From Bacteroidales bacterium (GTDB taxonomy: Bacteria > Bacteroidota > Bacteroidia > Bacteroidales > WCHB1-69), in contig JAGCCZ010000041.1 in assembly GCA_017651425.1 (NCBI GenBank), forward strand, positions 44,767-108,766: a DNA stretch of 64,000 bases, in the 5' to 3' direction. The notes below the pieces were generated by a model that saw only the letters and a list, made by a program, of their open reading frames with translations, did not search any database and was not told where the DNA came from. Within the stretch, counting starts at the first letter, position 1. Every line of letters begins with the position of its first letter. The translations under genes and the position numbers were made by a program. Below, piece after piece: positions 7,946 through 16,746 of this stretch.

Positions 7946-8224
7946 TTACGTGCTAAGGGACGAGTGAGCAGTGATCAGTGGATTGATGGAGGTTCCGCCA
8001 CACGATTGAGGCAGGTCGTGACCACGGGTGACAGAGTGTGTGGCAGAATGGCAAGCAAGAGGGTGCATTGTGGAGATTCCGCACGACCGACCAGCCCCGC
8101 CAGGGGCTAAAGCCCGGTAGGAAACGGCGGCGATGCGGGTTCCCCGAAGCCCCGTCAGGGGATTCCCAGGACGGTATAATCGGTAGCAGAGCATCGGTGG
8201 TGATTTTGACGTGGCGAATATCAT
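7946..8224 (-). repeat. terminal copy of the cassette-leader hairpin repeat (no Rhs core follows it)
   Basis: Same module order as the leaders at 11.4, 13.3 and 14.9 kb: cgccac..caaaa.caccaccgatg, then CCCC-N4-GGGG hairpins at 8150-8161 and 8093-8108, ending in ctgatcactgctcact. The ORFs called here (7946..8224 -, 8038..8226 +) are translations of the repeat. Confidence 0.75.
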
Positions 8225-8263
8225 AGATTTTCAGATAGTTATATATGAGGATGTTTTGGGGCT

Positions 8264-8875
8264 TTATTCACAATCTTTATAAACTGCACTCGAGTTATAA
8301 TATTGAATTTCCATATATCGTAAGTGGTGTTTCTCATCAAAATACAGATGCATTATCGTATGGTCTTTTTCACCTGTAGAGAAAGATATCTCATAAAAAC
8401 ATTTATGTTTATTTATTCTATGCCTATCATTATATGGTGCAAGACAATATACTTGAGGAGAAGGCATTTCACAATCGAAAACTTCAAGAATATCACGCAG
8501 TAATATCTTATACGATAGCTCGACATTTTTATCTACCTCATATATCCTCAGTCGCTTATTCTTTTTGAAATCCAAATGTTGGAGGCGCACTTTGCCGAAT
8601 TCTTCGAAATAGGCAATACCCTTTCTTCCACTGTAAAAATAATTGACAGTATAACATTCTCGCATAGTACTAAAAGGGTTAGGATGAATATAAAGTTTCA
8701 TATCCTGAATACACTTCCAACTGTATTTTAGGGATAACAATTCGACAGTTTTTCCTTGTATTGGAATTTTTGATTGCAGATTGTCTATATTGATTGTACC
8801 GTTTGGTTTTTTTTGACAGAAACAGACTGCTGCGGTTAGTACTAAGTATATCAAAAATAATAATCTTATTCTCAT
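8264..8875 (-). CDS. putative periplasmic immunity protein for Rhs-CT toxin 1
   Basis: Signal peptide MRIRLLFLIYLVLTAAVCFCQ. The start overlaps the toxin stop by 4 nt. AT-rich, with no recognisable family. Confidence 0.6.
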   Translation of the reverse strand: MRIRLLFLIYLVLTAAVCFCQKKPNGTINIDNLQSKIPIQGKTVELLSLKYSWKCIQDMKLYIHPNPFSTMRECYTVNYFYSGRKGIAYFEEFGKVRLQHLDFKKNKRLRIYEVDKNVELSYKILLRDILEVFDCEMPSPQVYCLAPYNDRHRINKHKCFYEISFSTGEKDHTIMHLYFDEKHHLRYMEIQYYNSSAVYKDCE

Positions 8876-10062
8876 TTTCTCAAAGAATTATCGAAATCTC
8901 CTTGTTTACTTTCCGGGACAGAGAACAATATAACTACAAAAGGATATTGCGCATTGACGTTTTTTGCAGAATAGACTCTTGCTGGATATCTTGACATTGC
9001 ATTATTATAACTACCCCATTCCACAGATGATCTTACCCACAAACTGCCGTTTTTACCTTCAATTGTAGAGGAAGGTGCCAACCACATATCAACAACAATC
9101 TTATCACCGCCCTTAAGAGGAATGGAGACATTACTATATTGTGTTCCACCGTCTTTACTGTAAAAACCAATTATATAATCATTCAAATCCACGCCATATA
9201 TGCCATTGGGCAACGTGGTTCCTTTATTGGCTCCGTACATCAAGGCAAACATGACTTGTGAAGCTTTTTGAGAATCGTTCATTTTGTGCCAATTTCCTTT
9301 TAGCACACTTGAACCATTTGTGGCTTCTTTTACATGTGCCCCTTTGATTATTGCTCCTTCTTTTATTTGTCCAGTTGTGCTTAATTTAGCATTGTTGAAA
9401 ATCTTCGTGCTTATGAGTACTCCATTAGCATCTTTGTATTGTCCATTTGCGTCCCTGCATTCAAATTGTCTGTTGAAGGTGTCAAAACTGTCCCCTTTTT
9501 CCGCTGTGTATGTCACATTCCCGTCCTCATCCAACCCGGGAATCCACCGCCCATCCGGATCAGTAAGTTTCACTGGATTGTCCGCGCAATACACATAGGG
9601 ACTTGAAGAAGGATATTTCGCCGCCATCGGGTCGACGCTGAGCCAGATGCTCAAATCCGAGCTGTAATAGCGTGCGCCAAAGTAGGTTAGACCGGTTTCC
9701 GCATCGCGTTCTTTTGCGGAGAAGGTGTAACGCACTCCGTCGAAATGGCTGGAACGTTGGTTCACAAACTCCTCGCCCCAAGGCAGATAGTGGAGATGCT
9801 GCTTTACCGTGCCGTTGGTGGTGGTGATCCAACTGCTGCTGCCGAGGTGGTCGGGATGGTAGAAATAGAGCGTGGAAACTGCATCCTGCCGGTCGGTGAG
9901 CGTGTCCAAATAGGAGAAGCGGGAGCTTGCCGGAACGGTCAGGGTGGCGGGATGGTCCACCCCGTTTGTCACCGCCTGCAGCTTCACCTGCACGAGGGAG
10001 TCGCTCACCACGGGAGTGTGGACATATGCGTAAAGATGATATGAAAACGCGTTGTTGCTCAT
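8872..10062 (-). CDS. orphan Rhs fragment: distal RHS core (YFYHPDHLGSS...YTFSAKERDAETGLTYFGARYY...NPVKLTDPDG) fused to an unclassified C-terminal toxin domain
   Basis: RHS repeat-associated core motifs lie in aa 65-170, followed by about 225 aa of unrelated sequence that starts with a LysM-like stretch (VTYTAEKGDSFDTFNRQF). The N-terminal Rhs shell is absent. Confidence 0.8.
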   Translation of the reverse strand: MSNNAFSYHLYAYVHTPVVSDSLVQVKLQAVTNGVDHPATLTVPASSRFSYLDTLTDRQDAVSTLYFYHPDHLGSSSWITTTNGTVKQHLHYLPWGEEFVNQRSSHFDGVRYTFSAKERDAETGLTYFGARYYSSDLSIWLSVDPMAAKYPSSSPYVYCADNPVKLTDPDGRWIPGLDEDGNVTYTAEKGDSFDTFNRQFECRDANGQYKDANGVLISTKIFNNAKLSTTGQIKEGAIIKGAHVKEATNGSSVLKGNWHKMNDSQKASQVMFALMYGANKGTTLPNGIYGVDLNDYIIGFYSKDGGTQYSNVSIPLKGGDKIVVDMWLAPSSTIEGKNGSLWVRSSVEWGSYNNAMSRYPARVYSAKNVNAQYPFVVILFSVPESKQGDFDNSLRK

Positions 10063-10092
10063 TACGAGGCAAAGATAACAAATTAAGAACTT

Positions 10093-10506
10093 CTATTTAT
10101 GACCGAAACTGTAGTTAGAACCATCTAATGGGCCTTTTTTGTTCCTTAGTCTTCTGATTTTATGTGTAGAATAGTGATTAACATTTGTCCACCATTCAAC
10201 ATACAATGATTGTATTTGATAATAGTCATATAACGTTAAATTTGAACCGTTTTTACTGCTAAGTATGAGATTATATGTGAAGTGTGGATTTAGTAATCGC
10301 TCAATTGACAGTACTACTTGTGTCCCCAATAAAAATCGTTTAGATGTGGAAGAGTATGGCATTGTACATTCGTCTTGTTGTCCGCCCAATGATATATATT
10401 CGGTTATTCGAGGGATTAGAATTTCTATGCTGTCCTTAATTCTTGTCTGTGACATACCATTTAGATGTATAACACATAGAAAAAGAAGTATAATGACTCT
10501 ATTCAT
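10093..10506 (-). CDS. putative periplasmic immunity protein for Rhs-CT toxin 2
   Basis: Signal peptide MNRVIILLFLCVIHLNGMSQ and a 4-nt overlap with the upstream toxin stop. Confidence 0.6.
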   Translation of the reverse strand: MNRVIILLFLCVIHLNGMSQTRIKDSIEILIPRITEYISLGGQQDECTMPYSSTSKRFLLGTQVVLSIERLLNPHFTYNLILSSKNGSNLTLYDYYQIQSLYVEWWTNVNHYSTHKIRRLRNKKGPLDGSNYSFGHK

Positions 10507-15770: not shown

Positions 15771-15877
15771 CAGTCAGTTGAAATTTTCCAAAAAATCGTT
15801 CTACCAACATTTCCGACGGCCTCAATTCTTCTGTTTACATTTACTTCTGTTTTATAATAAAATCCTTTCTCGTTCAT
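15770..15877 (-). pseudogene. possible 3' remnant of a deleted toxin gene (35 codons), translationally coupled to the downstream immunity-like gene
   Basis: My translation is MNEKGFYYKTEVNVNRRIEAVGNVGRTIFWKISTD. Its stop TGA (15772-15770) shares one base with the ATG at 15770. Confidence 0.3.
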
Positions 15878-15906
15878 GTTTTTTTTATTCTAAACATCAC
15901 ACGAGA

Positions 15907-16266
15907 CTATTCTTTGTAATCTTGAAATTCCCAATGTCCGTAATAACTAAGTTTCCGACATATGTCATCCCAATTATCTCCTTCTACACAAAAACAGGAT
16001 ATCAGTTTTTTACATAATAATGAATAATTGTAATGTGTCATAATAAGATGATGCAATCCAATTAATATATTACATTTATTTTTGTCCATCATTGATTGTA
16101 TCCAATTCGGACTACAAACACACAATTGAAAACTTTCTCCACTATCAGTTCCTTGGATTCCAACGATTATAGTAATCCAAAAACCAAAACAAGTTGGATT
16201 TTCGGGGCGATAATTTTGAATATCCAATACATCAGCACTGCAAATATCTTTGATTTCTGATTTCAT
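15907..16266 (-). CDS. cytoplasmic immunity protein, Imm8-like (orphan)
   Basis: 119 aa with no signal peptide. The pattern ...NYRPENPTCFGFWITIIVGIQGTDSGESFQLCVCSPNWI...GLHHLIM..YNY...WDDICRKLSYYGHWEFQDY matches my memory of the Imm8 family, including the C-terminal WEF.DY. Confidence 0.5.
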   Translation of the reverse strand: MKSEIKDICSADVLDIQNYRPENPTCFGFWITIIVGIQGTDSGESFQLCVCSPNWIQSMMDKNKCNILIGLHHLIMTHYNYSLLCKKLISCFCVEGDNWDDICRKLSYYGHWEFQDYKE

Positions 16267-16268
16267 AA

Positions 16269-16346
16269 CTACATATTTACGTCTAAGTGACCGTTATTTA
16301 TCCATTCCCCACTGTTTGTGTTTCTTGATTCAAAGTTGGCCTGGTA
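16269..16346 (-). pseudogene. toxin 3' remnant abutting the inverted leader repeat
   Basis: The last roughly 25 codons of ORF 16269..16532 (...QANFESRNTNSGEWINNGHLDVNM) are AT-rich, are not part of the repeat, and end 2 nt before the Imm8-like start. Confidence 0.3.
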
Positions 16347-16746
16347 TTTTTTTTCGTATTTTCGCCACCTCCAAAACCACCGCCGATGAACCGTTGCCGA
16401 CCATATCACCTTATGAATCCCCTCACGGGGATTTGTGCCTCTCGCGGGAACGCCCTGAGCTACAGATATGCATCCCCTGACGGGGATGGGTTTCCTGTGG
16501 CATACTCCGTCACCCACTCCCATACTGATCACTCTTCACTGCTCACTGTTCGGCTACAGATATGTATCCCCTAACGGGGATGGGTTTCCTGTGACATACT
16601 TCGTCACCCACTCCCATACTGATCACTCTTCACTGATCACTGTTCGGCTACAGATATGCATCCCCTGACGGGGATGATCGGTCGCATGGAACCTCCACAA
16701 CGTACTCCGTTGCCCATCCACCTTCTGATCACTGATCACTGATCAC
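16347..16746 (+). repeat. cassette-leader hairpin repeat, inverted copy with internal 94-bp tandem duplication and terminal TGATCAC x3
   Basis: 16350-16540 is the reverse complement of 14800-15000 with few mismatches. ORFs 16250..16480, 16386..16574, 16468..16668 (+) and 16269..16532 (-) are translations of it. Confidence 0.85.
16459..16676 (+). repeat. 94-bp tandem repeat, 2 full units plus a partial third
   Basis: Units start at 16459, 16553 and 16647 with gctacagatatgcatCCCCtgacGGGGatgggtttcctgtg.catact.cgtcacccactcccatactgatcactcttcactg.tcactgttcg. Confidence 0.85.

Follow-up and report, generated by a model that had tools for sequence, protein, structure and literature searches.

A probable remnant of a tip-exchange locus for Rhs-type polymorphic toxins in rumen Bacteroidales

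Gene content of the toxin tip island

We analysed a 64-kb stretch of contig JAGCCZ010000041.1 of a Bacteroidales bacterium (the window), in which positions 7946-16766, between a BKACE gene and a TlpA-like gene, form an island of Rhs toxin tips and immunity-type genes. Four minus-strand open reading frames (ORFs 1 to 4, at 8872-10062, 10503-11516, 12403-13464 and 13985-15070) carry the tips that we name T03, T02, T01 and T00, respectively. All four match the Rhs core end model TIGR03696 (Rhs_assc_core) above its cutoff, with E-values from 4e-18 to 9e-16; the DPM...DPxG part is visible in the sequence, and after DPxG the proteins diverge into four unrelated tips. A small ORF lies 3′ of each, and in three cases the toxin and immunity genes overlap by 4 nt (8872/8875, 10503/10506 and 13985/13988). 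Two further immunity-type genes lack an intact toxin, one of them belonging to the Imm8 family, with the last 25 codons of its partner toxin persisting at 16269-16343. A hydrophobic, signal-like N-terminus was recognised, by eye rather than with a predictor, in five of the six small ORFs. The tips and immunity genes have a GC content of 0.30-0.44, compared with 0.53-0.58 in the flanks. Apart from the surviving toxin codons, which it did not mention, our analysis agreed with an earlier note on this DNA, which had been made from the sequence alone and had described four tip ORFs with small ORFs behind them, two additional immunity-type genes, five signal-like N-termini and an AT-rich island between GC-rich flanks.

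The statement in that note that the four ORFs hold just the last part of an Rhs core was correct for the core end, which is present in all of them, but not for the remainder. The N-terminal 60-100 residues of ORFs 2 to 4 are a non-coding repeat read in frame and not Rhs sequence, and true Rhs sequence 5′ of the YTFSAKE motif that opens the core end occurs only in ORF 1 (9730-10023). This 294-nt stretch is a stub of the body of a parent rhs gene, and is 93% identical to an Rhs fragment at another locus (L002; tblastn). The ORF N-termini (..GYRYASPDGDGFPV..) were considered as genuine protein and rejected, as they are the repeat translated in frame, which abuts the core at the first codon of YTFSAKE. 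The features of the island are as follows, with loci of other strains and genomes given by L numbers.

7946-8224, minus strand: terminal repeat of the left boundary, second subtype, with its 3′ end outward and abutting the BKACE terminator
8264-8875, minus strand: immunity-type gene of T03 (203 aa, signal-like N-terminus), overlapping the toxin stop by 4 nt; also in L012 and L013
8872-9544, minus strand: toxin tip T03, no family assignable; 1 mismatch in 1700 nt against L013
9545-9729, minus strand: core end of cassette T03 (YTFSAKE...DPDG), junction at 9729
9730-10062, minus strand: stub of the parent rhs body, upstream sequence ...HYLPWGEEFVNQRSSHFDGVR; homology over 9730-10023, ORF start at 10062
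10093-10506, minus strand: immunity-type gene of T02 (137 aa, signal-like N-terminus)
10503-11330, minus strand: cassette T02 (tip 10503-11145, core end 11146-11330)
11331-11612, minus strand: repeat 5′ of T02, with hairpins and heptamer repeats, including a conserved 64-nt piece (11549-11612)
11722-12393, minus strand: immunity-type gene of T01, with a sub-threshold match to MORN_2 (26.7 bits, cut-off 29.6); gene callers start it at 12369 (215 aa)
12403-13224, minus strand: cassette T01 (tip 12403-13039 with HEGGH..GH..PSG, core end 13040-13224)
13225-13433, minus strand: repeat 5′ of T01
13461-13988, minus strand: immunity-type gene of T00 (175 aa, signal-like N-terminus)
13985-14785, minus strand: cassette T00 (tip 13985-14600, core end 14601-14785)
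14786-15054, minus strand: repeat 5′ of T00 (14786-14996) with the conserved 64-nt piece (14991-15054)
15264-15770, minus strand: orphan immunity-type gene (168 aa, signal-like N-terminus), no toxin
15907-16266, minus strand: Imm8-family immunity gene (Pfam PF15586, E 2e-26)
16269-16343, minus strand: last 25 codons of the Imm8-partner toxin, which is intact in L003 and L004
16344-16766, plus strand: repeat in opposite orientation, one full copy with two extra 94-nt 3′ units, ending at the stop codon of the TlpA-like gene
11339-11384, 13233-13270, 14794-14830 and 16700-16766: heptamer repeats; also in L057, L035, L038 and L060

When the remaining large ORFs were scanned with Pfam, no genes for an Rhs shell, PAAR, VgrG, a type VI secretion system (T6SS) or a recombinase were detected, as the earlier note had also found; these ORFs are housekeeping genes and genes for cargo of the type IX secretion system (T9SS). 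Searches of the window by tblastn with the integrase, DUF8202 and giant-toxin sequences of the loci described below returned nothing but the parent stub, and the leader-promoter region of those loci had no homology to the window.

The same genomic site in related strains

Sister loci were identified by exact-protein look-ups with the flanking BKACE protein, Imm8 and the T00 immunity protein, which returned rumen metagenome contigs and metagenome-assembled genomes from the lineage of the window and from close relatives of it. In these strains the BKACE/TlpA site was hypervariable, this being the comparison of the kce/TlpA-like junction that the earlier note had proposed: cassette content varies, and in one strain (L015) the site is empty, with the island absent and ~90 nt of two inverted repeat ends remaining. 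Two strains (L012 and L013) have the distal cassette T03 in common with the window and differ in their inner cassettes. The minus-strand arrays of L013 and L019 run up to a divergent tyrosine recombinase gene (PF00589), followed by a gene for a T9SS-sorted DUF8202 protein and the start of a giant ORF, while in L014 and L017 the first 90 codons of the recombinase gene and its upstream region are inverted, and read into the T00 cassette on the plus strand. At L104 and L111 a giant rhs gene on the plus strand (>2,800 codons) is followed, in this order, by its own tip and immunity gene, T00 with its immunity gene, a third cassette and the TlpA gene. The T00 cassette of L104 is inverted relative to that of the window, and 98% identical to it (L104 9170-10695, window 13294-14819), whereas the adjacent housekeeping flank is 88% identical (L104 11917-19721, window 16646-24456), which suggests recent horizontal exchange of the cassette.

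As the recombinase and the giant parent stand at the BKACE/TlpA site in sister strains, both belong to the locus and the window strain has lost them. The detachment from any parent, presented in the earlier note as a property of the island, is thus a secondary state, with recombinase, DUF8202 and giant rhs genes carried at this site by L013, L019 and L104, and the 294-nt stub in the window itself.

Decay of this machinery is common. L034 (~10447) and L035 (~7148) have a recombinase gene that breaks off at about codon 149, in L014 and L017 (15659-15925) it does so at about codon 90, and large deletions in the giant gene recur (L095, L060 and L085). The ~90 nt at the empty site (L015 10900-11000) are a palindrome (AGTGAGGAGTGATCA/CTGATCACTCTTCACT) built from the 3′ ends of two repeats in inverted orientation, and may represent either the scar of an excision or an attachment site that is native.

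Organisation of the complete locus

The fuller system was also found at about 30 other rumen Bacteroidales loci, 20 or more of which show the layout given below. Two scans, one of GTDB genomes for the recombinase and one of JGI metagenomes for matches to a DUF8202 protein alignment, had together yielded ~70 loci of rumen Bacteroidales. The common layout consists of one to six or more minus-strand cassettes, a Bacteroidetes-type promoter and a leader reading into the first of them, the plus-strand recombinase gene, the DUF8202 gene and the giant toxin gene (~3,100 aa), which ends in its own tip and immunity gene, often with plus-strand cassettes 3′ of this parent and sometimes with a gene for a LytTR/MarR membrane protein after the recombinase. 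The DUF8202 protein carries the T9SS sorting domain Por_Secre_tail. The parent is complete at L049, where it has 3103 aa and comprises SpvB, FG-GAP, TcdB_toxin_midN and DUF6443 domains, RHS repeats, the core end and a Peptidase_M10-like tip, with no PAAR among its Pfam domains. The domains of the BC component of Tc toxins, i.e. an N-terminal SpvB domain, an FG-GAP propeller, TcdB mid/N and an RHS shell, are present in this giant protein and, as precomputed Pfam domains, in its homologues. The parent is a polymorphic toxin of the TcB-TcC fusion type and not a T6SS Rhs protein, matching the 'TcdB/TcaC pathway' class in Zhang et al. 2012. The frame of T6SS, PAAR and VgrG within which the earlier note had considered delivery does not fit a parent of SpvB-TcdB-FG-GAP-RHS type that stands beside a T9SS-sorted protein. 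We noticed no TcA-like gene within 10 kb of the giant genes, although no dedicated search was run.

The recombinase has weak, sub-threshold matches to XerC, XerD and integron integrases; the scores of 34 bits with TIGR02249 (cutoff 265) and 17 with NF011946 (cutoff 435) indicate that it is not IntI. Its nearest outgroup consists of relatives with 41-47% identity, and as the two that were examined are both prophage integrases, the use of such distant relatives as markers of rAID-like arrays was rejected.

Among the best 120 homologues of the 445-aa fragment there was no full-length parent, all being <=800 aa, and a search with the N-terminus of the giant protein gave just partial relatives of <=59% identity. 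Rhs fragments of 675 and 775 aa were located in other orphan arrays. In other rumen bacteria, longer Rhs fragments (675-819 aa) with co-oriented orphan cassettes of the repeat type and the same type of junction occur at L021 (10001-15965) and L024 (1-11255); arrays of this kind have no recombinase nearby, and one adjoins a DUF6088 gene. At seven loci (L047, L055, L068, L069, L075, L076 and L089) the DUF8202 gene and a giant SpvB-TcdB-RHS gene are present, and the 10 kb upstream contain neither a recombinase gene nor an inverted array. Some loci (L049 at 3133-5132, and also L043, L046, L060, L065, L070, L077 and L085) have 2 kb of additional DNA that separates the genes for the recombinase and DUF8202 and encodes the membrane protein with LytTR and MarR-type DNA-binding domains, which could be a regulator, and a small lipoprotein-like ORF.

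Repeats and cassette junctions

The repeat hairpin ATCCCCTSACGGGGAT has 11 copies, all of them within the island, where 0.05 would be expected by chance, and the cassette boundaries are defined by repeats as previously noted. The repeat belongs to no known RNA family, as Rfam, even at a relaxed threshold, yielded nothing for the island but a chance match to a snoRNA. As single-stranded DNA, the repeat 5′ of T00 folds better than shuffled versions of it (z = -3.4). The earlier note had one repeat bounding the island on both sides. Repeats do stand at both ends, but they are mutually inverted and of different subtypes, and the right copy, which is opposite to all the others and has the two extra 94-nt units, is fused to the 25 remaining codons of the Imm8-partner toxin. 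The left-boundary subtype is also found 5′ of cassettes in L013, L014, L019 and L020, and from its alignment with the ends of plus-strand arrays in L104 and L014, the right repeat (16344-16766) is recognised as the terminal repeat of a former plus-strand array. The 3′ half of this repeat (94 nt, hairpin and heptamers) is tandemly triplicated at 16459-16766, as if the contents between successive repeats had been deleted.

We surveyed 131 junctions (109 unique) between cassettes and the sequence upstream. The right side always reads [T/C][A/T]CACCTTCTCCGCmAAAGAA, the codons for YTFSAKE; every cassette starts at the first codon of this motif, TACACCTTCTCCGCmAAAGAA, and ends with a structured repeat of hairpins and 4-5 heptamers. 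The left side belongs to one of three classes: the leader type, which adjoins the recombinase gene, the parent type, which encodes ...LPWGE.F.NQ......R, and the repeat type, in which hairpins are followed by 4-5 heptamers (CAyTnnn) with the end ..GTCT. The tandem heptamers are always directly 5′ of repeat-type junctions, and their sequence varies by cassette, even within one array. The conserved 64-nt piece 5′ of the repeat in T02 and T00 reads in frame as ..VTIYINGKEAEASVIFG.., and provides the ATG that gene callers assign to the tip ORFs.

Sufficient DNA upstream was available for 28 distinct 5′ ends of recombinase genes (63-100% identity), and 26 of them have a junction on the opposite strand, 273-341 nt upstream. 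In all 25 distinct leader regions the motif TAnnTTTG, in agreement with the Bacteroides -7 promoter element, ends 18-20 nt before an ATG, and the leader that starts there has 19 codons in 24 of these regions and runs straight into the junction. The leader sites contain the inverted repeat TTTGCGGA-N13-TCCGCmAAA across the junction, with arms TTTGCGGA/TCCGCAAA.

Exchange of toxin tips as seen by comparison of strains

Comparison of strains showed the same tip behind repeat, leader or parent sequence, and in either orientation, with the switch located at the first codon of YTFSAKE or within the core, mostly in its last third. For nine pairs the tip was >=97% identical over 300 nt and the upstream class differed, and we located the last mismatch within the 185-nt core. 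Four of the nine had no core mismatches and thus switched exactly at the junction. Since homology is absent upstream of the junction, homologous recombination cannot cross over there, and site- or position-specific joining is needed. For tip T03, the upstream sequence is of the parent type in the window and of two different repeat types in L013 and L012; for tip T00, it is a repeat in the window and the leader in L014, with 0 core mismatches. Inverted placement was also observed: L060/L085 and L065 share a 5.86-kb central module that is 99.3% identical, and the cassette that follows the parent on the plus strand of L060 is, inverted and 97.8% identical, the one that follows the leader on the minus strand of L065. 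Relative to L019, L020 contains an additional cassette between the leader and tip T09.

Identity of the toxin tips

The arrangement of the core end directly before a variable tip, together with unrelated tips that each have a small immunity gene, conforms to Rhs/YD polymorphic toxin cassettes. Beyond the core, T00-T03 match nothing in Pfam and NCBIfam, and phmmer searches of the PDB gave no matches. For T01 an AlphaFold model has a confident tip domain, with a predicted local distance difference test score (pLDDT) above 85; a Foldseek search of the PDB with this model gave nothing significant, the weak metallopeptidase matches having E-values above 1, and the tip has the invariant HExxH-type motif HEGGH..GH..PSG. 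Tips at sister loci match Peptidase_M91, M10 and DUF6973, and the signal-like N-termini of the immunity genes point to bacterial targets. The tip family of T01 (P0039-P0049) is also found on another type of Rhs core end (GGYRYFFNGQEADNE...DPRGDSV), and therefore moves between toxin scaffolds.

A model for the locus and alternative explanations

From these sequence comparisons, the island in the window is probably the remnant, without recombinase and parent, of an integron/shufflon-like tip-exchange locus of rumen Bacteroidales. The structural part of this interpretation is much firmer than the enzymatic part. In the proposed mechanism, the tyrosine recombinase would act at the junction, where the leader would provide a primary site with two arms, and its partners would be the repeat-core and parent-core sites. 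It would insert and excise cassettes beside the leader, as in integrons, with deletion at the exact junction occurring as well, and inversion between opposite sites, as in shufflons, would supply the parent with a tip that had stood in the leader slot or the array, while homologous recombination between cores would offer a second, slower route. The promoter-leader slot probably transcribes the adjacent immunity gene, with translation via the 4-nt overlaps. In the window strain, the leader and the genes for the recombinase, the DUF8202 protein and the parent have been deleted, leaving the 294-nt parent stub on T03. With the machinery lost, the tips are not deliverable from this locus, and the array supplies at most immunity proteins and a silent archive of tips. 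We more tentatively suggest that a phage-derived recombinase may here serve as an integron/shufflon hybrid for polymorphic toxins, with its site at the YTFSAKE codons, capture in the leader slot such that the incoming immunity gene is expressed first, and inversion onto the Tc-like parent; such a hybrid logic, if true, might also explain the assembly of rAID-type immunity arrays.

Several observations weigh against a tip-exchange locus. The switch lies inside the core in five of the nine pairs, at nt 75, 124, 124, 171 and 180, which fits ordinary homologous recombination, and the insertion that distinguishes L020 from L019 is not clean, as the neighbouring core is altered too. The conserved left arm of the leader sites is absent from the parent-type sites, and both ends of the island are outward repeat 3′ ends, which a simple half-site exchange at the junction does not yield. 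There is neither an integrase nor an inverted array upstream at 12 of the 31 loci with DUF8202 and giant genes, so the toxin does not need the integrase, and the recombinase module looks like an add-on to it. The four tips of the window could be assigned to no toxin family with Pfam, NCBIfam, the PDB or Foldseek. Finally, we infer recombinase action from comparison between strains, and the absence of a parent refers to the 64-kb window.

The switches inside the core, together with the occurrence of gene-conversion patches, are also what would be expected of an ordinary Rhs orphan array that changes by RecA-dependent 'C-terminal displacement', with the integrase as a passenger, e.g. left over from a prophage or island with which the locus arrived. 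The prophage integrases in the outgroup, the giant-toxin loci that lack the integrase and the classical layout of co-oriented orphans 3′ of the parent all agree with such an origin. We nevertheless consider it unlikely, since the other four exchanges fall exactly on the 5′ limit of homology, with no homology upstream, and since the spacing, promoter, leader length and palindrome are kept among integrases of 63-100% identity, which a passenger gene would not do.

Alternatively, the array may be a rAID-like defence island that is kept for immunity against the toxins of neighbours, in which the tips are inert and switching is not the purpose. Such a role fits the present state of the window strain and is partly compatible with a tip-exchange locus: units with immunity genes only are present (15264-15770, and Imm8 with its truncated toxin), arrays persist without a parent (the window, L012 and L014), the leader promoter could drive expression of immunity genes, and rAID-1 and polyimmunity loci are known beside recombinases of the XerC/D type. 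As an account of the whole system it is improbable, given that the tips are intact, near-identical across strains and, in some cases, fused to the body of the parent, and that the recombinase is divergent rather than co-oriented.

A mobile element with terminal inverted repeats, moving in and out of the BKACE/TlpA palindrome so that strains differ by carrying different elements rather than by shuffling in place, would account for the empty site with its ~90-nt palindromic remnant of two repeat ends, for the inverted boundary repeats with 3′ ends outward, which tip exchange leaves unexplained, and for T00 being 98% identical between flanks of 88%, but is scarcely credible, as the distal T03 and the flanks are common to strains with different inner cassettes, which fits turnover in place, and related loci in other genomic contexts keep the same internal logic.

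Other features of the window

The T9SS cargo genes of the window include one at 1440-5966 for a protein of 1,508 aa (1,508-1,538 aa across strains) with Fn3_assoc/CHB_HEX_C repeats; in one strain an IS21-family pair is inserted upstream of this gene (L012 1197-3601). A bacterial alpha-2-macroglobulin of 2,067 aa, with MG2, A2M and bMG10 domains, is encoded on the minus strand at 38291-44494.

Comparison with known systems

The architecture of the complete locus was not described in the literature that we searched. A main rhs gene with arrays of orphan tips and immunity genes, which change by 'C-terminal displacement', is known from Jackson 2009 and Koskiniemi 2014 (as cited in PMC5727410). These Rhs orphan arrays share with our loci a conserved core end, variable tips with immunity genes, truncated orphans beside a full-length gene and crossovers within the core. 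The loci described here differ by exchanges at an exact codon, structured repeats and an inverted array upstream of a recombinase with a promoter-leader slot, and their parent is an SpvB-TcdB-RHS fusion and not a PAAR/VgrG-linked T6SS Rhs protein. Integrase-like genes also recur by the Rhs arrays of the bee-gut bacteria Snodgrassella and Gilliamella, for which a role in capture was proposed without further evidence (Steele et al. 2017, PMC5727410); this case concerns another phylum and Rhs type, and the paper describes neither a defined site or leader slot nor inverted arrays or evidence from breakpoints. Tips of Rhs and other polymorphic toxins are usually viewed as changing by slow, RecA-dependent displacement. 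The locus offers a testable alternative, with a defined recombinase, a ~35-bp site, an expression slot and natural variants in which tips occupy the repeat, leader or parent position. Provided that the recombinase is active, the toxin and immunity repertoires of rumen Bacteroidales could be reprogrammed quickly and reversibly, and stand-alone arrays would be decay products or immunity archives of such loci and no separate kind of element.

The rAID-1 islands are defined by a 5′ tyrosine recombinase of XerD-like type that is >=44% identical to BF9343_RS08045 (Ross et al. 2019, bioRxiv 10.1101/471110; PMC12247911), with >=2 genes co-oriented downstream of it, a GC content <=41% and repetitive intergenic sequences (bioRxiv 10.1101/471110). 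They share with our loci a tyrosine recombinase beside a low-GC array of short genes, repetitive intergenic sequences, strain-variable content and their occurrence in Bacteroidales, and the repeats of the window are repetitive intergenic sequences in this sense, likeness to the rAID motifs aside. In rAID-1 the recombinase is co-oriented with immunity genes only, whereas at the sister loci the low-GC array and the recombinase diverge, the tips are intact with an Rhs core end, and there is a parent gene. Membership in the rAID group is thus not established, as the recombinase is divergent and its outgroup consists of prophage integrases. The earlier note had seen in the island the logic of both orphan arrays and Bacteroidales immunity islands; the Rhs tip/immunity array is borne out, and the rAID island is apt as an analogy only. 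How recombinase-associated immunity arrays of Bacteroidales are assembled is regarded as an open question (PMC12247911).

The likeness to integrons lies in a divergent recombinase with a promoter and a primary site, in promoterless cassettes with structured sites that are conserved more in shape than in sequence, and in the position of the newest cassette by the primary site and the oldest at the distal end. A primary site with promoter is present, by analogy, in the sister loci only, the window being without a primary site. In contrast to integrons, the recombinase is not IntI, the site lies within coding sequence, a cassette is a tip/immunity pair, and there are inverted arrays and a target gene. 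In the R64 shufflon, Rci swaps the C-termini of PilV by inversion at sfx sites. Our loci resemble shufflons in having inverted alternative C-terminal segments beside a tyrosine recombinase, and sites that seem asymmetric, with a conserved right arm. They differ in that the segments are full toxin/immunity cassettes of 1.5-2 kb, that the invertible unit would span the 13-kb block from recombinase to parent, and that inversion is seen only by comparison between strains. The TcB-TcC cocoon of the Tc (ABC) toxins (PMC7861908, PMC11067744) shares with the parent the SpvB, FG-GAP, TcdB mid/N and RHS parts and a core end with a hypervariable tip, whereas here B and C are fused, the partner is a T9SS-sorted DUF8202 protein, and the tips are accompanied by immunity genes with signal-like N-termini.

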